Virus record (IMG/VR): IMGVR_UViG_3300038393_003173
Span: 1-28,726 of that record
From: a virus
Taxonomy: Duplodnaviria; Caudoviricetes
DNA: 28,726 nt
Reading direction: 5' to 3' (one strand)
Below are positions 1 through 20,195 of this stretch, piece by piece. The position numbers were made by a program, and so were the translations under genes. Below the pieces are notes generated by a model that saw only the letters and a list, made by a program, of their open reading frames with translations, had not been told where the DNA came from and searched no databases. Numbering within the stretch: the first letter of the stretch is position 1; every line of letters starts with the position of its first letter.

Positions 1-576
1 CCAGCAGCTCCAGAGCGCCAGATCCGGCATCTGACCCACGCTCAGTTCGAGAAGTGGTACGCCGAAGTGAAGGCTCCGCACGCGCGGCTGTACGCATTGC
101 TTGGGCTTTACACGATGGCGCGGCCGACTGCGATCCTCGAACTTACTTGGGATCGAGTGGACTTCGAACGGGAACAGATAGACCTGAACCCGCGCGGGCG
201 CCGACAGACGAAGAAGCGCCGGCCAGTTGTGGCGTTGAACGAAGAGGCGATGGATGCGCTCAGAGAGGCCTACAAGGGCCGTCAGAGCGAATATGTGATC
301 GAGCGTGGAGCCAAGCCCATCGCCAACATCAAGAAGGCGTTCCAGGCGGCTTCCGCACGTTCTGGGATCAAGGTCACGCCCTACACCCTTAGGCACACCG
401 GAGCCGTGTGGGCAGCAGAGGCCGGAGCCTCAATGGACGAGCTAGCCCAATTCATGGGTCACGACGACAGCGCGACCACTTCAACGCACTATGCGCGGTA
501 CTCACCGGGGCATTTGAGAGGAGTTGCGACGAAGGTTCAAAGGGCCAAGAATCAGGCCCCAGAGTTCATATCGTGA
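1..576 (+). CDS. int: Tyrosine recombinase / phage integrase, C-terminal catalytic domain (5' end lies outside the window)
   Basis: Frame is open from base 1 (PAAPERQIRHLT...). Catalytic motifs: YTMARPTAIL (Arg), YTLRHT (box II, Y in place of the usual H), MGH, HYARY (Tyr). Adjacent to a tRNA-derived att core. Confidence 0.93.
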   Translation, partial: PAAPERQIRHLTHAQFEKWYAEVKAPHARLYALLGLYTMARPTAILELTWDRVDFEREQIDLNPRGRRQTKKRRPVVALNEEAMDALREAYKGRQSEYVIERGAKPIANIKKAFQAASARSGIKVTPYTLRHTGAVWAAEAGASMDELAQFMGHDDSATTSTHYARYSPGHLRGVATKVQRAKNQAPEFIS

Positions 577-629
577 CAGCAACCCCTGTCTATTTTGCTT
601 GCTACTCTGGCGGATTTCCGCTAGAAAAT

Positions 630-677
630 TGGTCGGGGAGAGAGGATTCGAACCTCCGGCCCCTGCCTCCCGAAGGC
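630..677 (-). mobile_element. attP core: 3' half of tRNA-Pro (anticodon CGG), from anticodon arm to CCA
   Basis: Reverse complement is GCC-TTCGGGA-GGCAGGGGCCGGAGGTTCGAATCCTCTCTCCCCGACCA: anticodon loop with CGG, T-loop GGTTCGAATCC, CCA end. No D-arm or 5' acceptor strand beyond 677. Begins 53 bp after the int stop codon. Confidence 0.9.
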
Positions 678-771
678 GTTGCTCCTCTCTATCGCACGAT
701 AGCGGGCAGCGATTTTCCTTTGGAACGGAATAGCACCGGAGACGGTACGGATTGGCACAGTTCGGGCCGGA

Positions 772-788
772 AGGTTCAGCATGAACCT
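772..788. promoter_or_regulatory. Palindrome AGGTTCA-gca-TGAACCT; candidate integrase arm-type or regulator site
   Basis: Perfect 7-bp inverted repeat. GAAGGTTCA also occurs at 531-539 on the other side of the att core. Confidence 0.4.
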
Positions 789-814
789 CAGCCCCTGTCT
801 ATTTGGGATGGCCG

Positions 815-1204
815 ATGATCTACTTTATTCGGGCTGGCAGGAAGCGCCTTGTGAAGATCGGCTACAGCAAGGGCCATCCATCGATCCGCCTAAAGACGCT
901 TCAGACGGGCAGCATAGAGCCGCTAGAGCTTATCGGGATGCTGGACGGCGATCCGCGGGATGAGGCGGAATGGCATCGGCGCTTCAGGCATCTGCGAGTT
1001 ACTGGCGAATGGTTCCGCTGGACCTCTGAGCTATCGTCCGCCGCCAAGCCCTACCTGCGCTCCACTGCCGAGAGAAGGTTCGAGAAGAGCCTGCGCGAAT
1101 GGAAGGCGCTCGCCGACAAGCTTCCGAGCCTCCGGATCGCGGTTGCCAGAATTGAGGATCGCCTGGGCGCAGAGGAAGTCGAAAGGCTCAACAATGGCGA
1201 ATAA
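815..1204 (+). CDS. GIY-YIG superfamily protein (T5orf172/MUG113-like)
   Basis: MIYFIRA...VKIGYS...RLKTLQTG...E..WHRRF...GEWF pattern. ATG at 815 preferred over TTG at 803. Confidence 0.85.
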   Translation: MIYFIRAGRKRLVKIGYSKGHPSIRLKTLQTGSIEPLELIGMLDGDPRDEAEWHRRFRHLRVTGEWFRWTSELSSAAKPYLRSTAERRFEKSLREWKALADKLPSLRIAVARIEDRLGAEEVERLNNGE

Positions 1205-1224
1205 AGACCCAACACATCAGGGGA

Positions 1225-1545
1225 ATGATGATGACTGATTCTGGGCTCGATCCTTCGCGCTTCGAGTGGCGCGAGCAGACAGCCAAATATTCGCGAGGCC
1301 AGGACTTGCTAATCAGCAATATCACAGTCGGCAGCGTGTTCTATGACGGCGTTTCGAGCAGAGATATCAACGATCGCTACAAAATAACGACCGCTCTACC
1401 CGGCGTGCGTCCGCGTGTGGACAGGTTCGCCAGTGAGGACGAGGGCAAGCGAGCGCTAGAGCGTCTGACTATGGCGTGGTTTGCGCGCACGGTGCCAGCG
1501 ATAGCGCTCAGTCCCACCACCCAGAAAGGGTCCGACAATGCCTAA
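1225..1545 (+). CDS. Hypothetical phage protein
   Basis: 106-aa ORF preceded by CAGGGGA and overlapping the next start. No recognisable family. Confidence 0.65.
   Translation: MMMTDSGLDPSRFEWREQTAKYSRGQDLLISNITVGSVFYDGVSSRDINDRYKITTALPGVRPRVDRFASEDEGKRALERLTMAWFARTVPAIALSPTTQKGSDNA
1243..1260 (+). repeat. Collapsed left-type cloverleaf element
   Basis: GGGCTC-GATCC-TTCGCGC equals the two outer arms of element A (GGGCTC[42 nt]GATCC-CTCGCGC) joined directly. Confidence 0.6.
1496..1507 (-). repeat. Collapsed right-type cloverleaf element
   Basis: CAGCGAT-AGCGC equals the outer arms of element B (CAGCGAT[46 nt]AGCGC) joined directly. Confidence 0.55.
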
Positions 1546-2197
1546 CCCAACCGAGCTGATAATGACTGGGCGCGTGGCTGACGCCACCGGGCTCTCGCAA
1601 GCCGAGCCTGTTTCACGTCTCGGCCCTTCGGGCTTCGATCCCTCGCGCCGCGACCTCTTCGGGTCAGATTGGTTGCCGGTAATCACGCTGTGGCAACCAA
1701 TAGCATCGCTGTGTTTCGTCGACGATCCCGATCTACGTAAAGAGCTTGAGACACGTGGCTACCCTCCTCCAGAGAAGTATGTCGGAGGCGATATAGCAAT
1801 TCACGCGGCGGCTGCGTTCCCAGCCGCTAAGCACTTGTGGCCTGAGTTGAACGACCTTGCCTACGATGCCTTCGGGTGCGGCTACAACTTCTCACTCCCA
1901 CGCGGATGCATCCTAGGGCTCGTGACGCTCGGCAGGCCAGTTCGTGTCGAAACGATCCGCGACGCTATCAGCGCAGAGGAACGCGCGGCGGGGATATACA
2001 CTGACGGGCGTTGGGCGTGGCCGCTCAGCAACCCGCGCCAACTGCCCATTCCGCTTCCCGCGAAGGGCAAGCAAGGTTGGTGGAAAATCGCCGCGTCAGC
2101 GATCGAAACGCAAAGCGCCAAGACCGAAGGGCTTGGTCCGAAGGATGAGAGCGCGGTGGCGAAGCCAGACGCCCAAGGAGGCCAGCATGACACCTAA
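1538..2197 (+). CDS. ASCH (PUA-like) domain protein whose N- and C-terminal extensions are translated through structured repeats
   Basis: ITLWQPIASL...KELETRGY...IAIHAA...LPRGCILGLVTL...WAWPLSNPRQLPIPLPAKGKQGWW is the ASCH signature. Confidence 0.88.
   Translation: MPNPTELIMTGRVADATGLSQAEPVSRLGPSGFDPSRRDLFGSDWLPVITLWQPIASLCFVDDPDLRKELETRGYPPPEKYVGGDIAIHAAAAFPAAKHLWPELNDLAYDAFGCGYNFSLPRGCILGLVTLGRPVRVETIRDAISAEERAAGIYTDGRWAWPLSNPRQLPIPLPAKGKQGWWKIAASAIETQSAKTEGLGPKDESAVAKPDAQGGQHDT
1568..1648 (+). repeat. Structured cloverleaf element A (left type)
   Basis: Hairpin TGGC-tgac-GCCA; closing stem GGG(C)TC 1589-1594 / GA(T)CCC 1637-1642; central stem CCGAG 1602-1606 / CTCGG 1619-1623; hairpin CCC-ttc-GGG; conserved CTCTC and TTCGATC. 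Confidence 0.85.
2093..2174 (-). repeat. Structured cloverleaf element B (inverted relative to A)
   Basis: On +: GCG-ATCGAAA, CGC-aaa-GCG, CCAAG 2118-2122 / CTTGG 2132-2136 with inner CC-gaa-GG, TCC-gaa-GGA, GAGAG-CGC, TGGC-gaa-GCCA, GACGCCC. The reverse complement aligns to A block by block. Confidence 0.85.
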
Positions 2198-2408
2198 CCC
2201 ACATCGAGAAGCAGAGGCTGCGCTGCCTACGCGGCTGCACATCGTTTTCGATGGCCCGCCCGGTCCCGAGGGTGGGCGTTTTGTAGAGGTCGAAACGGCA
2301 GACGGCCGCAGCCAGAAGGCCGGCGAGTGGCACAAGCGAGCGGACGGCTATTGGGAGCTACGCATTGACGCCCTCCTCGCCAAGCTCGAAACAGGAGAGG
2401 GGAAATGA
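2187..2408 (+). CDS. Small conserved phage protein (IVFDGPPGPEGGRFVEVE...GEW...DGYWELRI), 73 aa
   Basis: AAGGAGG RBS then ATG at 2187; ATGA overlap with the next gene. The longer ORF call from 1944 overlaps the ASCH gene. Confidence 0.75.
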   Translation: MTPNPHREAEAALPTRLHIVFDGPPGPEGGRFVEVETADGRSQKAGEWHKRADGYWELRIDALLAKLETGEGK

Positions 2409-2671
2409 ACCAATATCGCAAGCTTCCGGTCGAGGTTGAGGCTATGCAATTCAACAACGATGAAACCACTTTCGATCTGCTCCATTGGGCAAACGCTTCG
2501 AGGACCGGGCTTCCTTTCGTCAGGTGGATCAATGATCGGCTAGAAGTGCCAACGTTTGAAGGCACCATGACCGCCAACGTCGGCGACTGGATTATTCGCG
2601 GTGTCGCTGGTGAACTCTATCCATGCAAGCCCGACATCTTCGCCGCTACTTACGAACAGGTAGCATCATGA
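2405..2671 (+). CDS. Conserved small phage protein, YRKxPVEVEA...GDWIIxGVxGExYPCKPDIF family (PGDYG-like)
   Basis: Motif recognised as common in phages; GGAGAGGGG RBS; coupled start. Confidence 0.85.
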   Translation: MNQYRKLPVEVEAMQFNNDETTFDLLHWANASRTGLPFVRWINDRLEVPTFEGTMTANVGDWIIRGVAGELYPCKPDIFAATYEQVAS

Positions 2672-2690
2672 CACTTGCCCTGAAGTCGTA

Positions 2691-2900
2691 ATGGGTGAGG
2701 TTGAGCTGTTGCCCTGTCCATTTTGCGGCCACAAGGCGAAGCTGATGAAGCTTCCCGAAACGCGCCCGTTCGTGGAATGTCAGAGTCGGCCAGCTTTCGA
2801 CACTACCGGCTTCCCGTGCGGCGCTAGGACAGGTTACTATTCGACCGACGCCGAAGCAATCGCCGCATGGAACACCCGCCAAGCCCTGAAGGACAAATGA
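2691..2900 (+). CDS. lar: Lar-family restriction alleviation protein (Zn ribbon)
   Basis: LLPCPFCG...VEC...CGA...EAIAAWNTR signature. Confidence 0.85.
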   Translation: MGEVELLPCPFCGHKAKLMKLPETRPFVECQSRPAFDTTGFPCGARTGYYSTDAEAIAAWNTRQALKDK

Positions 2901-3103
2901 CGATGGGGTACTATTTAGCGTCAGTCGCCACCTTGGGTATGATCTTCTTCGTGCCGTGGTCCATCATTGCCGCTTCTCGCGACTTGCGCAGCGTGGACAA
3001 GGATGAGCGACGACTTGCAATAGGAGTAATCGCGTTCACTATTCTCGGCGCGGCCCTGATTCTCCCATTGTTCTGGATGATGGCCGCCCATGAACCGCTA
3101 TGA
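2897..3103 (+). CDS. Small two-helix membrane protein, 68 aa
   Basis: ATGA overlap with the lar stop; two hydrophobic stretches separated by a charged loop. Confidence 0.7.
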   Translation: MTMGYYLASVATLGMIFFVPWSIIAASRDLRSVDKDERRLAIGVIAFTILGAALILPLFWMMAAHEPL

Positions 3104-3137
3104 TGACACAAGCAATGCCGAGTGACTGCTTAGTGTT

Positions 3138-3210
3138 GGACGTAATCCGGCTCTCGCCCTTCGGGCTGGGCCACTCTACGGTGTCCCAGCGCTAACGCGC
3201 TTCGATCCGG
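3138..3210 (+). repeat. Structured cloverleaf element C (left type, intergenic)
   Basis: Closing stem CCGG(C)TC 3147-3153 / GA(T)CCGG 3204-3210; GCCC-ttc-GGGC; central stem CTGGG 3166-3170 / CCCAG 3185-3189; CGC-taac-GCG; conserved CTCTC and TTCGATC. Confidence 0.85.
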
Positions 3211-3229
3211 CGTAAAGGGGGAAGAAAGA

Positions 3230-3835
3230 GTGACCGCCGTTCGCTCCCGACGCAATGCGCGCCTGAAGCAAATGACGCGCCCCGACCTGCCGCAAGAGCG
3301 CAGGCCAACGGTGTTCTTTGCTCGCCAGCTTGGCGCGGCAGAGGACGTTCGCCCATCACACGAGAACGACAACGTGAGCGGCTTCGCTCTACGTCATGGG
3401 CGCTATGAAACGCTCGGCACAATCTATCGCCTCGCGGATGGCGTTGGAGAGAGCCGTATAGTCCACAGAACCGTCACGATCTTGGACGGGTGGTTCGACG
3501 ATGATGTTTTCTATCGTTCGCATGTAAGGACTATCGAGCGGATCAGGGACTTATGGCGCCGCATCAAACGTCCGACACACCCATACTTCGATAGTCACGA
3601 TCCAGAAGACCGGCAGGATGGGCCAGATGCCGAGCGCGCAAAGAACGTGCTCCGCAATTGCCGCCGCTTGGTCGGCAACTATCGCTGGAATATCTTCGAG
3701 AATGTAGCGCGCTGGAATGAGCCGACTGGTGTTCCAGGATCTCGCATCGCGCGCGTCAGTGCAGCATCAGTGCGAGCCGCGCAGATGATCGTCCGCGAGG
3801 TGGCAGACGACATTTGGAGGGCTCAGATCTTATGA
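3230..3835 (+). CDS. Putative Q-like / DUF6456-like phage transcription regulator
   Basis: C-terminal WNIFENVARWNEPTGVPGSRIA...IVREVAD resembles alphaproteobacterial phage late regulators (from memory). Purine-rich RBS before GTG. Confidence 0.55.
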   Translation: MTAVRSRRNARLKQMTRPDLPQERRPTVFFARQLGAAEDVRPSHENDNVSGFALRHGRYETLGTIYRLADGVGESRIVHRTVTILDGWFDDDVFYRSHVRTIERIRDLWRRIKRPTHPYFDSHDPEDRQDGPDAERAKNVLRNCRRLVGNYRWNIFENVARWNEPTGVPGSRIARVSAASVRAAQMIVREVADDIWRAQIL

Positions 3836-4722
3836 GGTCTGTCCCGTTGGCTACCCTCGAAGATAGGATCGTGCGCCCCGGCATAGAGGCACATCTGAAG
3901 CCGCTAATCATGTACCGAGGGCGAGTGACGCTAGGTGACGCGCACCGCATGTGGAACCTCGTTGTTTCGGGAATGGAGCACGAGGCCACGATCTCGGACC
4001 TCACCCAGCGCCTACAGAAGAATGGGTCCTACTCCCAACTCTGCTGCCCCAATGCGGTGAAGCAGAAAATGGCGATTTGCAGCTTTCTCAGCCGTCTGGA
4101 GGACAACCCCAAGGTCATGGCGCTGATTCCCGGCCTGGACGAATACGTCGATTGGCTTGGGGGCTGGCGCTTCGACCTCACTCCCGTAGACGAGGTTTCG
4201 CATCGCAGCCGGAATGTCGGAGCGGGCGGATGGCGATCCTTCACTGACGCCCGAATTAAGCCGCCCCCGCCGGAGTTCGCGGAACTCGCACGGCGTATGA
4301 CCAGCACGGAGCTGACGAAGCATTTCAATGTTGGCTTCCAGACGATCGCCAATTGGCGCAGAAAGATCGGCATTCAACCGTTCAGGAGGGCGCCAGAGCG
4401 CCCCCAAGCGCTACTCTATCCCTTCCTAATTCACGACGCCGGAAGACCGGAACACGCCCTGCTGCGCAAAGTGAATGCAGCTGTTCCAAGGTCAATGGAG
4501 CCAAGCCTACGCGCAGACGTTTGCCAAGACCTGATTGTCGGCATTTTGGCTGGCGAAATCAGCGAGGACGTTCTGCATCTCCCGAGCAGCGAGTTGACAC
4601 GCCGCGTGTGGAAATTTGCGCCGTCCCGCTACGGGGATCGCTCGCTTGATGAAGCCCTGTCCAGCGATGGCGAAACCACCTTCATGGACATGCTCGTGGA
4701 CGAAGGAAGGGATTGGGCATGA
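3832..4722 (+). CDS. Multi-domain DNA-binding protein: helical N-domain, HTH, and sigma-factor region 2/3.2-like C-terminus
   Basis: ATGA-coupled start at 3832. HTH MTSTELTKHFNVGFQTIANWRRKIG; RADVCQDLIVGIL; SLDEALSSDGETTFMDML. Confidence 0.6.
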   Translation: MRSVPLATLEDRIVRPGIEAHLKPLIMYRGRVTLGDAHRMWNLVVSGMEHEATISDLTQRLQKNGSYSQLCCPNAVKQKMAICSFLSRLEDNPKVMALIPGLDEYVDWLGGWRFDLTPVDEVSHRSRNVGAGGWRSFTDARIKPPPPEFAELARRMTSTELTKHFNVGFQTIANWRRKIGIQPFRRAPERPQALLYPFLIHDAGRPEHALLRKVNAAVPRSMEPSLRADVCQDLIVGILAGEISEDVLHLPSSELTRRVWKFAPSRYGDRSLDEALSSDGETTFMDMLVDEGRDWA

Positions 4723-4748
4723 CCGACACCTCAGACGATAGCCGTGGA

Positions 4749-6290
4749 CTAAGGCACCGCCACCTTCTGACCAATCGGGAAGTCCGTGTTAGGATAATGA
4801 TCGGCCTTCAGTATCTGTGAGCCGTCGCCCAGATCCCCGCCCGCGCATGACAGCTTCAGGTTGATGCAGGTGCGGTGCCATGTCGCTTTGATCATGGGGC
4901 TCCAGGCTTCCCAATAATCCATATGCCACGTCGAGCCGGGAACGACATTCATCCCTGCAGCATTCATCTGGCGGTCGCTGTCGAGCAGCCATTTGCCGTC
5001 ACGGAAGTTCTGATCGGTCGTGTAGGCCACCTGCACCTCAAGGTTCGGGATCACGTAAGGATGATCCGAGGGACAGGCGCGGAAGAACTGGCCGGGATAC
5101 ATCGGGCCGTTCGACCATGACATGTGCGAGCGATGGTCAGCACTATCGAGGTTCTTTCCGTCCCAGCAATTGGGAGCCGCGGCGATAATCATCAGCCGAG
5201 CTCCAACCGGACAACCTGCTAAGCGAACCTCTTCCATCGAATGATAATATCCGTTGGCGCCGTTGTTGCCGACTGAGCCATCAAAACTCGCCCAGCATTG
5301 AAATGTAATGGCGTCGTGGTTCTGCGAACTTACATCGGTCGGGCCATCGGTCATGGTTTTCATGTTAGCGCCGAACACGAAGCGGAGTCCGTTGGGAAGG
5401 TCAGTGCAGATGCCTACCCCTCCAAGATCAGGCGATTTGCAATATGGGTCGCTCAGAGGGTTTCTCTTGTAGTAGAGGTTCATGTAATCGGGTTTCACCA
5501 CATGGCCCGCGCTGTCGAGCATGGCGGGCATCCAATAAGCCGAGCGGTTCGTCGGGGTATTTGAGCCTCGATTGCCGCAGGTGGATTGGCCGGTCGTTCT
5601 GAGGCTCGTGTAATTGGAGTTGCTGTCCGTTCCGAGGTTGCCGAAGAACTGGTGAAGGTGCGGACTTACGCCGCCGGGATAAACCAGCGGATCTTCCCTC
5701 AGCAGCTGGCCAGGTGAGCAGAACTCGCGAAAAGCCCCAACCGGATCGGCTGAAGCCGGGGCGATCCCTCCCCTTCCGTTGGGACCGTACCATGTGGGCT
5801 CGGTTGCCTGGGATACGTCGAAATTGTCGGGGATGGATGTCTCGCCTGAAGTGCCTGTCGGAGGAGTAACCACCGGAGGCGTTTCATCATCGCTGATCGT
5901 GACAGTGGTAGGCGTGTAACTGGCGCTCACCTGGGCAAAGCGAAGAACCGTGATCCTGACCGCGAAGGTGCGGCTTCCCTGATAGGTGGCATTGTCGATC
6001 AGGGAGAGAGGGACTGAGAGCTTCGTCTGATTGTTGGCCAGCGTGTAAGTGGCGTTGAGCGTCCGATAATCGGTTCCAGCCTTGGCTGTTCCGTCAACCG
6101 TCTGAAGCTGGATCTTGGAGTAGCTGTTCGCCTTGGTCTTGGTGACGGTGAGCGTGCAGGGTGCGTTCTCGACGCAGGTGACATCAGGCACGGTGATGAT
6201 GGGAGGCGCGGCATGAGCCGGACATGCCGCCAGCACCATTACTGCGACAGTAAGCAGCACCGCGAGGGTGAAAGCGTGGTAGCGGTTCAC
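4749..6290 (-). CDS. Secreted DUF1996-domain protein with a Calx-beta-like domain, 513 aa
   Basis: GTG at 6290 overlaps the upstream stop. Signal peptide ending AHA/APP; TVDGTAKAGTDY...DDE (Calx-beta); DPLVYPG..SPHLHQFFGN, NRSAYWMP, CWDGKNLDSADHRSHM, CPSDHP, HMDY (DUF1996). Confidence 0.88.
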   Translation of the reverse strand: MNRYHAFTLAVLLTVAVMVLAACPAHAAPPIITVPDVTCVENAPCTLTVTKTKANSYSKIQLQTVDGTAKAGTDYRTLNATYTLANNQTKLSVPLSLIDNATYQGSRTFAVRITVLRFAQVSASYTPTTVTISDDETPPVVTPPTGTSGETSIPDNFDVSQATEPTWYGPNGRGGIAPASADPVGAFREFCSPGQLLREDPLVYPGGVSPHLHQFFGNLGTDSNSNYTSLRTTGQSTCGNRGSNTPTNRSAYWMPAMLDSAGHVVKPDYMNLYYKRNPLSDPYCKSPDLGGVGICTDLPNGLRFVFGANMKTMTDGPTDVSSQNHDAITFQCWASFDGSVGNNGANGYYHSMEEVRLAGCPVGARLMIIAAAPNCWDGKNLDSADHRSHMSWSNGPMYPGQFFRACPSDHPYVIPNLEVQVAYTTDQNFRDGKWLLDSDRQMNAAGMNVVPGSTWHMDYWEAWSPMIKATWHRTCINLKLSCAGGDLGDGSQILKADHYPNTDFPIGQKVAVP

Positions 6291-6595
6291 CCGAAGATCC
6301 TTCCGAAGAAGCCACGTGTCGCACGCTTCACTGCGGCGGCATCCCGCGCCTCGCAGCGTTCGACAATTCCTATGGCGTCTTTCGTGCGGCCGTTGGCCTG
6401 GTCGAGCTTGCCGGTCTGAGCGTCTCCGAAAGCAACCCAATCGGCGACTGTTTGGCCTTCAGGGAGTGGCGCGCCAGCTACGCCCTGCTTCCATTCCTGT
6501 GGAAGAAGCGCCGCGCACGAGTTCGGCGTTGCAGTGACAATGGGGGCCGCACAGGCCGATAGGCTAAGGACGGCGGCAGCGAGGATCATTCGCAT
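6287..6595 (-). CDS. Outer-membrane lipoprotein, o-spanin (Rz1-like)
   Basis: MRMILAAAVLSLSA-C lipobox; overlaps the 3' end of the upstream single-TM gene; lysis context. Confidence 0.78.
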   Translation of the reverse strand: MRMILAAAVLSLSACAAPIVTATPNSCAALLPQEWKQGVAGAPLPEGQTVADWVAFGDAQTGKLDQANGRTKDAIGIVERCEARDAAAVKRATRGFFGRIFG

Positions 6596-6932
6596 AAGCT
6601 TGCCTCTTGCAAAGGGCCGCAAGCCCAGCATCACGGACTGCGGGATTTACCTTGTCGTTCGCACCTTGAGCGGCGCGGATATCGCGCTCGTTGGATCGAG
6701 TGAGGTCTTCAGATGCCCGTGAGGCTTCGCCAGAAGCCGCTACAGTGTTGATCGCATCCGCTGCGCTGTTGGATGCCGCTTCGTCCTGTGAGCGCTCGAC
6801 GCGGCTCTGAGCGGCCTTTGAGCGGCGTTGGTCGCAGGAGTGGACGCCGAACGCGATAATGCCGAGCAGGAGAACTGCCCCAACGATCATGGCGATGAGC
6901 TTGAGCGCAATCTCTTTGCCGAAGATCATCAT
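6564..6932 (-). CDS. i-spanin (Rz-like): N-terminal TM plus periplasmic helical domain
   Basis: One TM (LIAMIVGAVLLLGIIAFGV), Ala-rich coiled coil, C-terminal Cys residues; overlaps the lipoprotein gene. Confidence 0.75.
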   Translation of the reverse strand: MMIFGKEIALKLIAMIVGAVLLLGIIAFGVHSCDQRRSKAAQSRVERSQDEAASNSAADAINTVAASGEASRASEDLTRSNERDIRAAQGANDKVNPAVRDAGLAALCKRQAYANDPRCRRP

Positions 6933-7063
6933 AGGGAATCGCCTTCATCGCGCAGCACGCGCTCGCGCACCGAGGTTGCGGGGTGTGCCTCTGCTTCATC
7001 GCGAGAGATGAAACGACCGGTCACTGCGCTGCGCCATAGCCAGCGGAAGAGACGGCGGATCAT
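6929..7063 (-). CDS. 44-aa small protein MIRRLFRWLWRSAVTGRFISRDEAEAHPATSVRERVLRDEGDSL (absent from the ORF track)
   Basis: ATGA overlaps at both ends fill the HNH-to-spanin gap exactly. RSAxTGRF...A..HP.T.V.E is a recurrent small phage protein motif. Confidence 0.75.
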   Translation of the reverse strand: MIRRLFRWLWRSAVTGRFISRDEAEAHPATSVRERVLRDEGDSL

Positions 7064-7554
7064 ATGACGTGTCTCCATGTTTTGCCTCTAATGAGCTGAT
7101 AGATGCAGCTCTCATCCACACCGAAGCGACTAGCGATGTCGCGGTACGAGAGACCGGCGGCGTGCATGTTGCGCGCTTTTCTGACAGTTGCCTCATTCAG
7201 CTTGGCGTGCGCGCCTTTGCCCGCTCGAATCGTGTCGATCAGGTTGTCGCTTCGAGACGCCCAGCGTAAATTGGAAAGCCTGTTGTCGCTCTTGTCCGTA
7301 TTATTGTGGCAGGCATCTGCGCCGAGTGGCCGTGGTCCGACAAACGCCAAAAGCATCAGGACATGAACAAACATTCCCTTCCGCTGCCCGCCTGTAGACA
7401 GCACTATGTGGCGGTATCCCTTGCACAACCCTGGCTTTAGAATCCGTCCACAGTACTCGGAATAAACCCGTCCGTTGTTGCTTACCTGGTAGCGAGGGAA
7501 GCCAGGGATGCTCTTCCAGATTTCCAATTGCGGAAGTACGATATCATCAGCCAT
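7060..7554 (-). CDS. NUMOD4-HNH homing endonuclease with C-terminal HTH
   Basis: EIWKSIPGFPRYQVSNNGRV (NUMOD4); VHVLML.AF...ACHNNTDKSDNRLSNLRW (HNH); SYRDIASRFGV (HTH). AAAGGA RBS before ATG 7554. Confidence 0.92.
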   Translation of the reverse strand: MADDIVLPQLEIWKSIPGFPRYQVSNNGRVYSEYCGRILKPGLCKGYRHIVLSTGGQRKGMFVHVLMLLAFVGPRPLGADACHNNTDKSDNRLSNLRWASRSDNLIDTIRAGKGAHAKLNEATVRKARNMHAAGLSYRDIASRFGVDESCIYQLIRGKTWRHVI

Positions 7555-7556
7555 TG

Positions 7557-7616
7557 CGCGGTCCTTTCGCGTGGTGGTCAGGGCTGAAGGCGGTGTTGCA
7601 AGCACCCCTTCGGCCC
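7557..7616 (-). promoter_or_regulatory. Structured leader of the HNH gene: a long hairpin plus a small hairpin holding the SD in its loop
   Basis: GGGCCGAAGGGGTG-cttgcaa-CACCGCCTTCAGCCC (7616-7581); CGCG-aaaggac-CGCG (7571-7557). Confidence 0.6.
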
Positions 7617-7648
7617 GCTTTTGTTCTAGCAGAATCACCGTTCGTTCT

Positions 7649-7984
7649 CTACTGTTTTGTCTCCACGGGAACGGGTTCGTCCGAGGTATTCACCACTGTG
7701 ACTGGGGCGGGCTCTGCTGGTAGTTCGTTCGCGACAGTCTGCCGCTCGATCTGGCGGACTGCGCTCTCTGCAACCTTGCGGCCTGTAGTGCTCGCGCCGT
7801 ATTCCGAGCTGATGACGCTGCCGCCCCAGCCCAGGACAATGCCGATGGCGAGCAACAGCGGCTCCTTGTTGCCGGGTGGGATATCAACCACGTAAAGCCC
7901 CGCCAGCGCGCCAAGCCCTCCGACAAGAACCATCAGGCCAATGAGACCGCGAAACCATCCGCTGTCGTGGTGATCACCGTTCAT
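7649..7984 (-). CDS. Putative holin (2 TM)
   Basis: Two hydrophobic helices, a YGAS motif and a charged tail; ATGA-coupled to the endolysin. Confidence 0.75.
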   Translation of the reverse strand: MNGDHHDSGWFRGLIGLMVLVGGLGALAGLYVVDIPPGNKEPLLLAIGIVLGWGGSVISSEYGASTTGRKVAESAVRQIERQTVANELPAEPAPVTVVNTSDEPVPVETKQ

Positions 7985-8679
7985 GCCCACCTCCCCGCGA
8001 TCAAGGACGCTTCGAATTGCTGCGCTTCCTTGGCGATCTCCTGAGCTTTATCGAGACCGTTGATGATCCGGCGCGCCTGAGTGTAGGCGTCGAAGCCAGC
8101 CTGCTCTGCGAGCGGCAAATAGTCCTTCAGCGACTTGCCGGTGAACCATCCGGCTTCCATTCCATGGACCATGATGCGGGCAGCGATATCCGGCTGAAGC
8201 GCCAAGTCCTCGTTTGAGATCAGCTTCCCGCCAAGGTCCAATTCATCATCTGCCCGAGCGTAATTCTTGGCCCAGGTCAGCTGCACATAGCCGCGGCCAT
8301 AATGCGGATAGTATTTGAGGTTATTGCGTCGCCATTCCTCGGATAACCAGTATGCCTCGCGCACTGGCTGAAGCGTCTTGTTCGTCTCATGCCATGCGGT
8401 CGCAAGTCCATACGCGGACCAACTGAGCGGCCAGCGGGCGACACCGAAAGCTTGAAGCAGCGTCTCGAAACCGTTAACCTGAGGCTGCGTCAGCGTGCCG
8501 AATACTGACCGAACCGCATCAAAGAACTTGCCCCCGTCACCCAGAGCAGTGGGATTGCGAACAGTCTGCCATTTGGCAATGACGGCATTGAGCGCATCGA
8601 CTTCTGACTGTTCAAGGCCCTCGCCCGTCAGTTCACGCTTAAGGGCACGCGCGGCATCAAAAAAGGCAGCAGCGCTCAT
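7981..8679 (-). CDS. Endolysin, glycoside hydrolase family 19
   Basis: AYGLATAWHET...PVRE...YGRGYVQLTWAKNY...ARRIING. Confidence 0.92.
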   Translation of the reverse strand: MSAAAFFDAARALKRELTGEGLEQSEVDALNAVIAKWQTVRNPTALGDGGKFFDAVRSVFGTLTQPQVNGFETLLQAFGVARWPLSWSAYGLATAWHETNKTLQPVREAYWLSEEWRRNNLKYYPHYGRGYVQLTWAKNYARADDELDLGGKLISNEDLALQPDIAARIMVHGMEAGWFTGKSLKDYLPLAEQAGFDAYTQARRIINGLDKAQEIAKEAQQFEASLIAGRWA

Positions 8680-9065
8680 TCAGGCTTCCCCTTTTTTTCG
8701 GCATCCATCTGTCGCTCGATCGAGACGATGCGCTGAGCTGTCTGGAGCGCTTCCCCCTCGCCGATGTGGTACGCCTCGGCGGCTATGGCGCGGCGCATCC
8801 ATTCGCCCTCACGTTCGCGGCAGGCATCCACCTCTACCTGGAGGTGATCGCAGCGCTCATCGAGGCGCCTGATCTCTGCTAGCAGGCGATCCCAATAGGC
8901 CGTGCGCTCAGCAGCTTTCGCTGCGCGCCACGCAAGCCACTTGTCGAGAATGGCCGGTGCTCCGCTCCACAACCTCGCGACGAACAGCGCCAGAATAAGT
9001 ACTGCCGTCCACGCCGCCGACGAGGTTGAGAACAGCTGGCTAACAGCCACACTGTCAAGTTCCAT
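8676..9065 (-). CDS. Single-TM plus coiled-coil protein (holin/antiholin-like)
   Basis: TM AAWTAVLILALFVARLW followed by a charged heptad region; coupled to the endolysin. Confidence 0.7.
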   Translation of the reverse strand: MELDSVAVSQLFSTSSAAWTAVLILALFVARLWSGAPAILDKWLAWRAAKAAERTAYWDRLLAEIRRLDERCDHLQVEVDACREREGEWMRRAIAAEAYHIGEGEALQTAQRIVSIERQMDAEKKGKPE

Positions 9066-9558
9066 CTCCGGCCCCGACCAGTGCGAGGCCGCCCGGCGGC
9101 CGATTGGGCATTACGCGACCCTTTCTTGAACCGAGCGTGGATTGAATTGCTTCTCCGCTGACCAACAAGAACTGGGCAACTACCAGCCAGTAGAGGCACC
9201 ACCACTTGAGCCACGGACTGATTGTCAGGACATAGATCGGCCAAGCCACGAGGATGTAGCTCGCGACCAGCCAGCGGTCCCACAGGCTGACGGCACGGCC
9301 AAAGCATTTGATCTGCTCACGAATGGTCGGGTAGGTTCGGCATCCTTCCCGCAACGTGGCTTTCATGCAGACCGCTGCAATGACGGCGATATCGGCCATG
9401 AAATAGACGGTGAGCGGGAGGTTATCGCCGCTCACCATCCATGAGAACTCGCCTATTGCCCAATTGCCGACCAACGCCGCCGCGACTGGATTACGAACTG
9501 CGGAGGGCAATCCAATCCCGATCACGACAACGTAGATCAGGACATGCGGCCAGCTCAT
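9055..9558 (-). CDS. Polytopic membrane protein (about 5 TM), unknown function
   Basis: Five hydrophobic segments; start overlaps the stop of the upstream peptide gene. Confidence 0.78.
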   Translation of the reverse strand: MSWPHVLIYVVVIGIGLPSAVRNPVAAALVGNWAIGEFSWMVSGDNLPLTVYFMADIAVIAAVCMKATLREGCRTYPTIREQIKCFGRAVSLWDRWLVASYILVAWPIYVLTISPWLKWWCLYWLVVAQFLLVSGEAIQSTLGSRKGRVMPNRPPGGLALVGAGDGT

Positions 9559-9671
9559 TTCTTGGGCGGAGGAGGTGGATCGCCGGAGCCGCCGCCGTCC
9601 GCTGGCTGAACAGGCGGGCCGTTGGGGTCTGGGATGTCCGGATGTTCAGGATGCGGTTTATCGTTGTGCAC
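9555..9671 (-). CDS. 38-aa Pro-rich peptide MHNDKPHPEHPDIPDPNGPPVQPADGGGSGDPPPPPKK (absent from the ORF track)
   Basis: AAGGAGG RBS 7 nt before GTG 9671; TGA overlaps the next ATG (ATGA). Confidence 0.75.
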   Translation of the reverse strand: MHNDKPHPEHPDIPDPNGPPVQPADGGGSGDPPPPPKK

Positions 9672-9700
9672 TGGACTTCCTCCTTCTGGTTGGCCTTCTT

Positions 9701-9716
9701 GTTAAACTTGCGTTAT
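9701..9716 (-). promoter_or_regulatory. CtrA-like box ATAA-N7-TTAAC between divergent small genes
   Basis: One mismatch to TTAA-N7-TTAAC, in an AT-rich patch of the 74-bp divergent gap. Confidence 0.45.
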
Positions 9717-9745
9717 TGATGCGCCCGCTCGGGTGAGGAGGCGAC

Positions 9746-9877
9746 ATGGTTACGAGTGCGGTGCGCGCAGTGCTTCGCGCCGAAGTTTTATTCGGGGCAG
9801 GGTTCGTTGCTGGATGCCTGCTGAGCGGCCTTGCTCGCGGCATCTACATGGGAATTTTCGGCATCCACGGCTGCTGA
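9746..9877 (+). CDS. 43-aa hydrophobic peptide MVTSAVRAVLRAEVLFGAGFVAGCLLSGLARGIYMGIFGIHGC (absent from the ORF track)
   Basis: GAGGAGG RBS at 9735-9741; one TM-like Gly-rich segment. Confidence 0.6.
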   Translation: MVTSAVRAVLRAEVLFGAGFVAGCLLSGLARGIYMGIFGIHGC

Positions 9878-9918
9878 ATTTTCCGTCCCGGCTTGATACG
9901 CTTCGCTAATGCGAGTGG

Positions 9919-9934
9919 TTGACAAAAAGTTAAC
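9919..9934 (+). promoter_or_regulatory. CtrA-like box TTGA-N7-TTAAC overlapping a TTGACA -35 hexamer upstream of the pilin gene
   Basis: TTGACAAAAAGTTAAC; a GANTC site (GACTC) lies at 9951-9955. Confidence 0.55.
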
Positions 9935-10027
9935 AGAAGCGCAGCCAACCGACTCGGGGCACCAAGATCAACAAGCTCCACACTTGATCCGCATTGAATG
10001 CGGGGCACATTCAAGGAGGACGTTGTT

Positions 10028-17525: not shown

Positions 17526-19850
17526 CTAGAAGCCTTTCGTTCTCGCCTGTGCGATGCGCGCGTTGAGTTCGCGGCCAAGTTGCCCTGCCGTTTCTCTGGA
17601 CACCGGAGATGTGATCGTGATCGGAGCGTGGACGGTGACACCGCCCCCGCGTGGCATATTGTCGTTGCCGATGTTCAGCCGTTCACCGTAGCTGACCTTC
17701 GCGATCGGCAAACCATTGAGCGATAGCGTGTTGTTATCGACTCCAGTGCGGCCCATGACATTGAACGAGCCGCCCTTGGCGAATCCTGGGAGGAACGAGA
17801 ACGCTGCGCCACCGGAAAAGAAGGACGGCTTTGCCGCAGAGGCAATTCCGGCTCCCCCAATGTCTGGTACGAGGCTTCCAGAACCGCCAAGCCCAAGGCT
17901 ACCAACGAGGCCACCGCCGCCGCTCATCCCCGCGCTGAGAAACGAGAAGAACATCTTCTGAATCTGCATTTTGATCAGCGCGGAAACGATGTCCTGTATG
18001 GTGCGAAGGGCAATGTCCCGCATCGACTTCCATCCCTCCCCGACATGGGAGAGAGCATCGGCCAACCCCTCAAGCCCCTGAACCTCTAGGTTCTGGAGCG
18101 CTTCGTTCACCTGATCGGCGGTGTGAGGAATGCTGTTCAGATAGTTTTCGAGTGGACCAGCTGTCCGTTGCATCACGCCTTGGCGGTCGTTGGCGTAAGT
18201 GGCCTTAAGGTTGATGAGATCGCGGCGCGCGTCTTCGATCGCTTTCCCGTCTTTTGAAGTGTCGATGATGTTCTGGAGTGCCTGGCGCTTTTGCTCATAG
18301 GCCAGCTGAAGCAGTTCCAGCTCGATTCTTCGCCGCTCCGACTGGGTAGTGGCGATATCCTCCTGGCTTTTCAGGATGTCGGCGCGACGGTCAAAATCGT
18401 GCTGTATGAGTTCCTGCGTATCGCGCTGGCGTTGCTCGGCCTCATCCTGCACGACCTTCTGGCGCTTGAGGCTGTCGGCGATGTCGTACTCAGCGAGGAG
18501 ATGTTGTTCCTGCGCTTGGGTGATTCCGTCCTGCCCTTTGGTCAGGGCATATTGCTTCACCTTGTAATCGAGTTCGGCCTTGTACTGTTCGCGCTGGTTG
18601 TCGAGTATTTGGATGGCGAGGGTGGTCTGCTCGACATAATCTGATGAAAGGTCTTTCTTCGCCTCCAGAATATCGCGCTGTGCGTCCAGCTCTTCGCGCT
18701 GAAGCTCGTACTGTTCGCGGGCCAGTTTCTCGGCCGTGTGGTCAACCCTTCCCCCGCCGCCTCCACTTCTTGCGCGGCGCGAACCTCCACCACCTCCACC
18801 AAGGAATTGGCCGACGCTTCCAGTACCTGATGGCTTTGTTGGAGCTGGACCAGCGCCTATCGCAGCCTTGAACCTCGCCGCACGATCAGCAGCCGTTCCC
18901 TTACTGGCCTGCTGCATCCGGAGATCCATCAGCTCAACTTGGCCCTGTGCAATCCGAAGTCGCGCATTGGCCTTGTTCTGAGCAGAGTTGGTTGGATCGA
19001 ACGCATCGATCTTACCGCTAAGAACGGTCATCTCGGCCACGAAGGCACGATATGCCCTGACTACCGTTCCGAGCTTTCCGATAAGTGTTGCTAGTGCATC
19101 GGCGAAAGCGAGAATGGAATCAGCATTGTCGGCAACAACGCCAGCGATTCTCGCCTTCAAAACAGTCTGAAGCGCTTCGATCTTATCAGCGGTCGCGTCG
19201 GCCTTTTGAATCTGTTCGTCGCTGAGCACGATCCCCAGCCGCTCGGCGGCATCAGAAAGCTCACTCAGCCTCCCCTGCGAACCGGAAAGAAGATTATCGA
19301 GCTTGGCCCCAGCCTTTCCGAACAGCGCAACTTCAATCGCCGCCCGTTGTGATCGATCGGATACATTTTCCAGCTTCTCGGCAATCATGCGGAATACATC
19401 ACCCGCGTTCTTGCCTCTCAGCTGATCAACGCTGATCCCGATGGCGTTGAAAGCAGCGATTTGCTTCTTCGCCCCAGATTCAGCTTGCCCCATGCTGATG
19501 GTGAGCTTCTGAATCCCTGTCTGAAGCTCTTCCTGGCTGATCCCAACCTGACCAGCGGCGTAGCTGAATGTCTGAAGGTCTTTGGTCGTCAGCCCTAAAG
19601 TGTCGGCCAGCTCGCCAAGGTGTCCCGCATATTCCAGCGCTGCCTTGCCCGCTTGAATGAGGCTGCTGATGCCGATGCCGCCGATGAACCCAGCCAGGCC
19701 AGCGCCCAGCGCTCCCTTGAGGCTATTGAACGAACCCCTGATCGACGAAGCTGTCTGCGCGGCCTGACGCTGCGAGCGCTTCATTCCCGCTTCGAAGGCG
19801 GTTGTCTCGGCGGACAAAGAGACACGCAAAGCGCCCACAAGTGCGTTCAC
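17526..19850 (-). CDS. Tail tape measure protein
   Basis: 774 aa, Ala/Gln-rich helical; VGALRVSLSAET start; LFGKAG; FAKGG; follows the chaperone genes. Confidence 0.95.
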   Translation of the reverse strand: MNALVGALRVSLSAETTAFEAGMKRSQRQAAQTASSIRGSFNSLKGALGAGLAGFIGGIGISSLIQAGKAALEYAGHLGELADTLGLTTKDLQTFSYAAGQVGISQEELQTGIQKLTISMGQAESGAKKQIAAFNAIGISVDQLRGKNAGDVFRMIAEKLENVSDRSQRAAIEVALFGKAGAKLDNLLSGSQGRLSELSDAAERLGIVLSDEQIQKADATADKIEALQTVLKARIAGVVADNADSILAFADALATLIGKLGTVVRAYRAFVAEMTVLSGKIDAFDPTNSAQNKANARLRIAQGQVELMDLRMQQASKGTAADRAARFKAAIGAGPAPTKPSGTGSVGQFLGGGGGGSRRARSGGGGGRVDHTAEKLAREQYELQREELDAQRDILEAKKDLSSDYVEQTTLAIQILDNQREQYKAELDYKVKQYALTKGQDGITQAQEQHLLAEYDIADSLKRQKVVQDEAEQRQRDTQELIQHDFDRRADILKSQEDIATTQSERRRIELELLQLAYEQKRQALQNIIDTSKDGKAIEDARRDLINLKATYANDRQGVMQRTAGPLENYLNSIPHTADQVNEALQNLEVQGLEGLADALSHVGEGWKSMRDIALRTIQDIVSALIKMQIQKMFFSFLSAGMSGGGGLVGSLGLGGSGSLVPDIGGAGIASAAKPSFFSGGAAFSFLPGFAKGGSFNVMGRTGVDNNTLSLNGLPIAKVSYGERLNIGNDNMPRGGGVTVHAPITITSPVSRETAGQLGRELNARIAQARTKGF

Positions 19851-19859
19851 GCTGTTCTC

Positions 19860-20195
19860 CTAGTTGATTTCGCGCTTCGAAATTTTCACCGGAACACCAC
19901 GCGCCTTCAGGCTGTGGAAGAAGGCCAAGGCTTTCGCGTGATTCGACTTGCCAGAAGGTCGGTCGTTCCCGAGATATGATGACAGCTTGTTGAGGCGCTT
20001 GGTTCTAGCGAAGGCTTCGTTATGCCAAGCCCCGACTATCGCCAGATCCATCTGCCGATGAACTTGCCGCGCAGCCCCCTCCATCGCATTGACGAAGCTG
20101 CGCGGTGTCTCTTTCCAGAAATCAGCAGGCCTGAAGCCGGCCGCTACCCATTCCCTGCGGAACTCTTCGACCGACCATTTCGCTTCGGAGGGTTT
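19860..20195 (-). CDS. Tail assembly chaperone T portion, reached by -1 frameshift
   Basis: The -1 frame reads PSEAKWSVEEFRREWVAAGFRPADFWKETPRSFVNAMEG..., continuous with ORF 19860..20084. Confidence 0.8.
   Translation of the reverse strand, partial: KPSEAKWSVEEFRREWVAAGFRPADFWKETPRSFVNAMEGAARQVHRQMDLAIVGAWHNEAFARTKRLNKLSSYLGNDRPSGKSNHAKALAFFHSLKARGVPVKISKREIN

Follow-up and report, generated by a model that had tools for sequence, protein, structure and literature searches.

We analysed a 28,726-nucleotide stretch of viral DNA (Duplodnaviria; Caudoviricetes; positions 1 to 28,726 of IMG/VR record IMGVR_UViG_3300038393_003173; hereafter the window), in which a prediction made from the sequence alone had placed three cloverleaf elements, A, B and C, and had proposed that such elements bracket accessory genes as inverted pairs. 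All three are present where they were described, with the stems and G·A oppositions as claimed, and they are members of a widespread family of multi-junction elements of about 80 nt with strong covariation. Sequence comparison establishes the strand polarity of the element where DNA is single-stranded and, in temperate phages, inverted pairing around cores of 150–800 nt that are fused in frame to the elements; unrelated DNA has repeatedly been joined at the first bases (GCG) of the element. Single copies in microviruses and direct copies on conjugative elements, which the original prediction had not included, point to a role in the replication of single-stranded DNA (ssDNA). We tentatively propose, with slightly less than even confidence, that the element is a host-recognised start signal for complementary-strand synthesis on ssDNA, that its 5′ edge serves as a joining point, and that the phage pairs act as frames for the exchange of cores.

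The purine-rich strand, which looks to be the functional one, is the minus strand for A (1648–1568), the plus strand for B (2093–2174) and the minus strand for C (3213–3138). On this strand the fold reads, 5′ to 3′, as an outer stem strand GCG, a core duplex arm GATNGAAR, a hairpin, a central stem with a fixed A·G opposition, a hairpin or 2-nt loop, YGANAGC, an optional hairpin, CGC and an unpaired CC(A). The architecture originally described is contained in this fold, which proved to be larger: to it have to be added the outer stem, in which 5′ GCG pairs with 3′ CGC, the unpaired 3′ CC(A) and, in A and B, one further hairpin. In element A, the outer stem, a hairpin and the G·A-mismatch core duplex lead to a junction whose third arm has shrunk to a 2-nt loop. 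A structural descriptor, composed after A, B and C had been seen, finds exactly these three in the window and gave no match in 200 dinucleotide-type shuffles. A scan of viral contigs that fixed just two core motifs returned 123 matches, of which 44 parse as the fold at the strict score; more parse as the fold by eye, and the remainder are chance matches. In the covariance model R1, built from 77 copies, 97.0% of cells are paired and double changes occur at 14 of the 19 pairs (none of 500 shuffles was as high, and slid controls gave 28–47%), a result with some circularity, since the descriptor that selected the copies demanded stems. The same compensatory changes recur, also inside the core, in copies that were later retrieved by way of capsid genes. 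Over 205 copies, even the non-canonical core covaries (C-G in 181, G-C in 11 and T-A in 8). Folding of single sequences is weak by itself (z of −1.1 to −2.1 on the purine strand of A, B and C); the case rests on covariation. Across 231 unique elements, the base before GCG is a pyrimidine in 82%, and an A follows the terminal CC in 59%. As predicted, the motif carries no name in Rfam: Rfam 15 gave no match in the window at gathering and E-value thresholds, and among nine loci resembling integrative and conjugative elements (ICEs) it matched just a tRNA elsewhere and no element. A full-text literature search that included literal 12-base motifs, and whose coverage left out older papers on single-strand initiation (ssi) sites and some supplements, returned no description. 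The family is apparently undescribed, and the element on its own probably represents a further family within an already known class of signals.

The loops and the pairing look like folded DNA and not RNA, as the original prediction had supposed. GNA triloops, C-G-closed GNNA loops, 2-nt CTTG-type loops and tandem sheared G·A pairs are stable in DNA, whereas RNA prefers GNRA and UNCG loops and G-U pairs. Among 238 distinct hairpins we counted 66 GNA triloops, 18 GNYA, 9 GNRA and no UNCG loops, and wobble G·T accounts for 12 of 1021 pairs. With DNA folding parameters, the purine strand is the more stable one in 190 of 205 copies. The accessible part of PMC2864571 also uses UNCG loops to tell RNA from DNA folds.

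We searched 97 viral sources with R1 and removed overlapping duplicates, which left 88 loci with 202 elements scoring at least 25 bits. Among 66 neighbours lying 150–800 nt apart, 51 are back-to-back, with their 5′ ends inward, 8 are convergent and 7 direct; at spacings below 150 nt no back-to-back pair occurs, and at 800–1500 nt such pairs are rare. In 34 of the 51 pairs a single open reading frame (ORF) brackets the pair tightly, starting at most 150 nt before it and stopping at most 60 nt after it (random windows: mean 3.5, maximum 9), and in 10 of the 51 the core has no open frame across it. The six cores that were checked encode a dCMP deaminase, DUF1643, a C5 methylase (Dcm), HNH, Fic and a methyltransferase; cores are near-complete domains that lack a start and a stop of their own. 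Whole phage records hold up to 14 copies, which lie in non-structural regions in the eight that were mapped. The original expectation of pairs bracketing genes holds for A/B and for the family. C is unpaired here: R1 finds no partner for C within 1–10000, C lies directly upstream of the ORF at 3230–3835 and no ORF translates through it, so that A/B is the only pair in the window. Further homologues, covariation and oriented pairs at variable-gene boundaries were thus all found. A metagenome scan with a pattern specific to A returned 2 loci. A complete back-to-back pair spanning one annotated ORF is also present in a cultured phage, Sphingopyxis phage VSN-002 (gene_19, L595:2530–3087), where it adjoins ERF and YqaJ genes and might offer a ready experimental model.

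The ORF at 1538–2197 is translated through both A and B, as had been noted, and the 5′ GCG of each element (1648 in A, 2093 in B) points to the core between them. An independent protein search returned unrelated proteins that resemble this ORF just at both ends (P0033, P0035, P0039–P0042, P0049–P0056). Because the elements are read in several frames, the element peptide is a by-product, and a peptide function for the element was ruled out on the same ground. Such peptides mislead annotation, as unrelated proteins acquire similar ends.

The sharpest view of the exchange comes from pairs of loci that share a frame. Between L172 and L135 the start codon, leader, both elements, tail and next ribosome-binding site (RBS) are about 90–98% identical, whereas the cores and the neighbouring genes are unrelated, and identity ends at the first base of each outer stem. 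One 82-nt element, which is 99–100% identical between four prophage loci that also have their downstream flanks in common, is preceded by four unrelated upstream ORFs; since three of these records yielded no partner element, the junction is a property of the single element. A comparison of the 231 unique elements gave 11 pairs alike in the outer flank and not the inner one, and 6 alike in the inner and not the outer. Seven pairs combine elements of 85% identity or more with a common outer flank and unrelated inner flanks; in all seven, identity extends to the first GCG, and the variable positions 4–5 go with the frame (probability of a chance match, 0.125 per pair; some 6 independent events). 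The first 15 bases of B (2093–2107) and its outer flank are common with L199, whose core is an unrelated Fic; the window frame and L199 have both outer linkers in common, and B compared with L199 is a mosaic element. The proposal that genes are mobilised at these elements is thus upheld as regards exchange and revised as regards the unit: it is the ORF core that moves, and a frame of start, leader, elements, tail and next RBS is left in place.

Contigs of three studies follow A as far as 1648 and B from about 2093 onward, and hold other sequence in the interval. Their joints, from 1648 to 2089–2093, have sides of less than 30 nt at 90% likeness, and most likely reflect other phages with A- or B-like elements, which gives support at the level of the family only. 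In four contig sets, none of the listed joints linked A to B with a change of strand; since contigs lose rare variants, they are uninformative on A/B inversion. Among the sequencing runs listed as containing the sequence, none was of RNA. The enclosed domain, described originally as ASCH, is recognised through homologues (a phrog_3193 match; homologues named ASCH or carrying PF04266) and not by Pfam, which gave no match to 1649–2092 at E 0.01. ASCH homologues with and without element peptides are scattered over the tree: 8 of 38 rows bear the peptides (4 of 42 were skipped), and the 6 changes required are no fewer than in shuffles (41–55 of 500 as low). Repeated capture and repeated loss are inseparable here because the labels come from protein ends alone and are blurred by collapsed relics. 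In 7 of the 8 element-bearing homologues the 3′ junction lies at the identical codon, with differing element types. A single-protein locus search returned one ASCH relative without elements (L244). In element-free homologues such as P0004, the end residues could be collapsed 3′ elements.

Outside the temperate phages, copies occur on strands that exist as ssDNA: in microviruses and, judged from the orientation of the leading genes, on the plasmids F, pT257A and pWW0 and in 8 of 8 ICE-like loci. In the microviruses KT264808 and MH572438 a single intergenic copy is found in each genome, on the coding strand, the one that Microviridae package. When 76 microvirus loci were fetched by capsid alone, 9 scored at least 25 bits (3 seeds and 6 new), all on the coding strand. 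We inspected 57 of the 76, in many of which a fixed offset missed the slot; the intergenic slot after the capsid gene and the next gene is filled alternatively by full copies, by reduced copies that keep just the G·A core duplex, or by unrelated GNA hairpins, some of them like the hairpin near the ColE1 origin. Relatives with 65–79% capsid identity carry other hairpins in this same slot. L547, L549, L521, L533, L535 and L546 hold alternative fillers, some ColE1-like, that are flanked by two conserved hairpins, one upstream and one promoter-like. A single-protein locus search with the microvirus Rep returned just the query. In phiX174 and G4 the second-strand origins are located after the capsid gene, according to the accessible part of PMC9865509.

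Both copies on F lie on the strand opposite ssb/psiB, i.e. the one templating the leading genes, about 95 nt past each Frpo hairpin and outside the published ssiD sequence. The accessible part of 10.1101/2023.02.15.528439 gives the strand templating the leading genes as the transferred one, and we infer the placement of the element on the transferred strand from this gene orientation. The copies on pT257A (2 of 2) and pWW0 (3 of 3) are direct and have the same polarity as in F, and blastn against PLSDB found the element in 3,715 records, mostly Enterobacteriaceae. No element was found by R1 in ColIb-P9, whose homology to F begins at the 5′ boundary of the element and which has a different branched GNA-loop structure in its place. 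This structure (L374:12756–12886 and 19789–19919; L368:15293–15423), beside Frpo in ColIb-P9 and in a third Frpo-like unit on an IncF plasmid, appears to be a further undescribed family. Among 80 bacterial genome loci, 69 were non-redundant with matches, and their neighbouring elements were direct in 16 cases and inverted in none. Neighbouring genes are of ICE type (ArdC, DUF736, ParB, TraG, XRE regulators, defence cargo); in 8 of 8 loci the ArdC, DUF736 and ParB genes lie 5′ of the element and are encoded on the other strand. In L266 (7932–9636), L262, L263 and L319, direct copies flank cargo (CHAP, NERD and toxin–antitoxin genes) like a cassette stack, between AlpA-like and XRE genes of ICE-like islands. 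A purine-rich motif that abuts the 5′ side of the element in L259, L283, L295 and L308 (Pseudomonas, Paracoccaceae, Enterobacterales) resembles what we take to be the n′-pas consensus. Lastly, single elements lie 50–340 nt upstream of terS, in sense orientation in 39 of 39 rows (19 distinct cores, related phages; L140, L125, L174, L188, L191, L194 and others), and are possibly linked to genome-end processing.

No gene family was found common to all nine element-rich phages (five of the eight comparison records were short of their last 0.7–4.4 kb or were read by a crude ORF caller); the ERF family and one structural family each occur in five, and all others in at most four. A further element-rich phage, beyond the ERF five, encodes an exonuclease VIII-type protein, and the MUG113/T5orf172 family, in 4 of the 9, is only a weak partner candidate. 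The integron-type or HUH enzyme that the original prediction had in mind did not emerge: neither was present among about 70 proteins scanned, mainly from three phages and not whole proteomes, and in a test of four integrases the best TIGR02249 score was 51.7 bits against a cut-off of 265, the partial integrase of the window reaching 25.7 bits. Since microviruses, F and ICEs have no obvious gene in common, the reader of the element is most likely a host factor.

Taken alone, priming as the primary role appears fairly probable, as microviruses, F and ICEs all need one defined strand made duplex; in two settings, moreover, other folds take the place of the element at one fixed position, as would be expected of a single-strand origin. 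A PriA-type site is described in PMC5778457 as a hairpin that resembles a fork. The fold would form on the unpaired strand during microvirus infection, conjugation or ERF/exonuclease recombination, and a host replication factor, most likely through PriA-type primosome loading or DnaG, would recognise the G·A core duplex. In an inverted pair each core strand would have a folded element 3′ of it, aiming synthesis into the core. Strand ends at the stem base might then be joined, or might switch template, at the common GCG, so that the core is swapped and the frame kept; this is the weakest step of the proposal.

Several observations weigh against this reading. The sharp junction is unexplained by priming alone because primosome priming is not known to be base-precise. 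R1 has no match to the phiX174 primosome assembly site (PAS; best phiX174 score 8.6 bits, off the PAS), to the G4 origin, where nothing was found, or to ColIb-P9, and the element is therefore not a known ssi by sequence. In 67 of the 76 microvirus loci the score is below 25 bits and the element is mostly missing, and the terS singletons have no obvious ssDNA stage, so that an RNA would fit there too. As for the junctions, the six pairs sharing an inner flank, five of them from one terS-linked lineage, record exchange elsewhere than at the 5′ edge; L070 and L141 have element and core in common and not the outer flank, so other crossovers do occur; and these phages also have short, element-free RBS/start linkers in common, a second layer of modularity. 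To these are added the circularity mentioned above and the non-random sampling of the loci, which came from pattern searches.

The main rival, which is unlikely but deserves serious attention, is a dedicated structure-specific cut-and-join site: an enzyme of HUH type, an Ssn-like GIY-YIG nuclease or a flap nuclease with a ligase, encoded by the host or by an element in trans, would cut at the 5′ base of the outer stem and join the new 3′ end, so that inverted pairs capture or swap cores and, in ICEs, the direct arrays release and stack their cargo in the manner of integron cassettes. This comes near to what the original prediction had in mind. It accounts for the precision of the junctions better than priming does, given the identity to the first GCG in all seven selected pairs, the ASCH homologues joined at one codon and the pyrimidine preference before GCG, and it fits the defence-type cargo between direct copies in ICE-like loci. 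Against it stand the failure to find a common enzyme among the proteins scanned and the lack of attC boxes and Ssn motifs in the 231 elements; a site on the packaged microvirus strand or the transferred strand of F would need some other purpose, and the other hairpins that microvirus relatives use in the slot argue against a nick site cognate to Rep. We hold it possible, on the doubtful side, that the pairs form a recombinase-less, diversity-generating cassette system in which a conserved proteobacterial host enzyme processes an ssDNA fold, common to microviruses, F-type plasmids, ICEs and temperate phages, base-precisely at the 5′ stem, and phage pairs capture and exchange domains in frame within an expression frame that is already in place.

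Rather improbable is the view that the element has an ssDNA function of its own and that cores are exchanged, in the manner of PeSL cassettes, by ERF/Red-type short-homology annealing at the element ends, with selection filtering for in-frame, complete domains. The ERF and exonuclease VIII-type genes, the shared element-free linkers, mosaic elements such as B against L199 and the near-completeness of the cores all agree with it, but it leaves the inward 5′ ends of 51 of the 66 neighbours unexplained, as well as crossovers confined to the first three bases although some 17 conserved bases are available. We give little credence to a structured RNA in phage or plasmid transcripts (an antiterminator, a processing site or a protein-binding site). 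The sense orientation upstream of terS, in microviruses and at ORF 3′ ends would suit an RNA, as would the frequent 3′ CCA, whereas the DNA-type loops, the near absence of wobble pairs, the antisense position relative to leading genes in F, pWW0 and ICE-like loci, the occurrence of both orientations inside a single ORF and the lack of an Rfam match oppose it. Least credible is a selfish insertion resembling miniature inverted-repeat transposable elements or repetitive extragenic palindromes (REP), paired by chance or as the ends of a composite transposon. The copy number of up to 14 per phage and the decayed relics might suggest this, yet target duplications occur in 1 of 51 pairs at 4, 5 and 6 nt, which is at or below chance, and in none at 8 nt, and the outer flank moves with the element and not with the core. 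Moreover, the element is of low copy and confined to mobile DNA (at least 7 of 150 sampled Pseudomonadota genomes have matches) and keeps to a single fixed slot in microviruses; no empty site with contiguous flanks was seen. Phage mosaicism at gene boundaries is an old question, and here the boundary is an orientable 80-base structure with the junction within about 3 bases, which makes it directly testable.

The window represents a fragment of a temperate phage whose host is probably an alphaproteobacterium, judging from the hosts of related loci. Its gene order runs from the end of an integrase through a tRNA-Pro-derived likely attP and a short rightward accessory cluster to leftward lysis, tail and portal genes; the coordinates are collected in the table, and ARAGORN found no whole tRNA. 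The protein at 803–1204 is presumably GIY-YIG-like. Weak model matches accompany the probable collapsed element and its supposed partner (13.4 bits, E 0.028, and 7.1 bits, not significant); other contigs depart from the window at 1246, and a possible partner relic near 1496–1523 would complete a pair around the ORF at 1225–1545. The linkers at 1516–1547, 2183–2229 and 1220–1246 (RBS/start codon) are common to many contigs in four studies. Blastn of 1500–3300 against named phages gave a match confined to the gene at 2405–2671. The ORFs at 3230–3835 and 3814–4722 belong to no clear family; the interval 3294–4300 is covered by none of the sequencing runs compared, which carries no weight as to absence. 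A DUF1996 plus Calx-beta protein (4749–6440, minus strand) lies between the accessory cluster and the lysis genes.

Features of the window. A, B and C belong to the training sequences of R1.
Feature	Position	Strand	Basis
Phage tyrosine integrase, C-terminal part, not integron-type	1..576	+	profile matches
3′ half of tRNA-Pro(CGG) ending CCA, likely attP core	630..674	-	sequence
MUG113/T5orf172 protein	803..1204	+	profile matches
Probable collapsed element, reduced to its outer and inner ends	1241..1260	-	start of ORF 1225-1545; by eye
219-aa ORF: leader, A, core, B and tail	1538..2197	+	reads through both elements
Element A, 5′ frame element	1568..1648	-	R1, 79 bits
Exchangeable core, ASCH-like domain, fused in frame to A and B	1649..2092	+	homologues
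Element B, 3′ frame element, full four-way junction	2093..2174	+	R1, 78 bits
Element C, subtype without outer hairpin, unpaired	3138..3213	-	R1, 59 bits

The ssi sites are among the known systems most like the element. The hairpin near the ColE1 origin, which we take to be ssiA, resembles the element in its GNA loop and tandem-GA style. More generally, the ssi of phiX174 and ColE1 (n′-pas, ssiA) and the G4 primase origin are likewise folded ssDNA, host-recognised, strand-specific and, in microviruses, intergenic after the capsid gene, as far as the accessible parts of PMC9865509, PMC5778457 and PMC3167613 describe them. The element differs in its conserved multi-junction core, and the accessible literature mentions no ssi arranged as an inverted pair within an ORF. 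Frpo/ssiD of F has the same strand and the same repeated unit, and the element adjoins both Frpo copies (PMC9849209, PMC11541004 and PMC12672017, in their accessible parts); one Frpo* candidate in that portion of PMC11541004 takes in the first half of the element. The element nevertheless lies past the published end of ssiD, is not the long −10/−35 hairpin and occurs in phages without Frpo. It is found both in the leading region of F and in the slot in which gokushovirus-like microviruses would need a second-strand origin, two places where the accessible literature defines the priming signal poorly.

Integron attC sites share with the element folded ssDNA, covarying stems, a short shared crossover triplet, association with variable genes and, in ICE-like loci, direct arrays (16 of 16 genome neighbours). 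The element is branched and not a hairpin, it is inverted in phages (direct in 7 of 66 at 150–800 nt), and phage cores have no start or stop of their own; no IntI was found among the four integrases scanned, and the inverted consensus R boxes of attC occur in 0 of the 231 elements. Rfam, in which the window has no match, presumably holds a model of the DUF1874 motif. That motif, compared by description only, is multistem with a conserved internal loop and has been proposed as an unusual attC-like ssDNA, but the accessible text describes it in tandem in consecutive intergenic regions (PMC5737381). T4-type PeSL cassettes are also short structured repeats in variable phage regions with modular shuffling; as the accessible part of PMC2839356 presents them, they are intergenic promoter–terminator units recombining between repeats, whereas the elements described here are translated, inverted and break at one edge. 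Ssn with its SRM sequences (PMC11893778, in part), REP/RAYT and the ends of IS200/IS605 offer an oriented ssDNA structure, and Ssn cleaves beside the fold. Here no flanked nuclease gene was seen, copies are few and confined to mobile DNA, and the degenerate SRM consensus occurs in 0 of the 231 elements. No system matching the translated, inverted, core-swapping frame was found in the literature searched.

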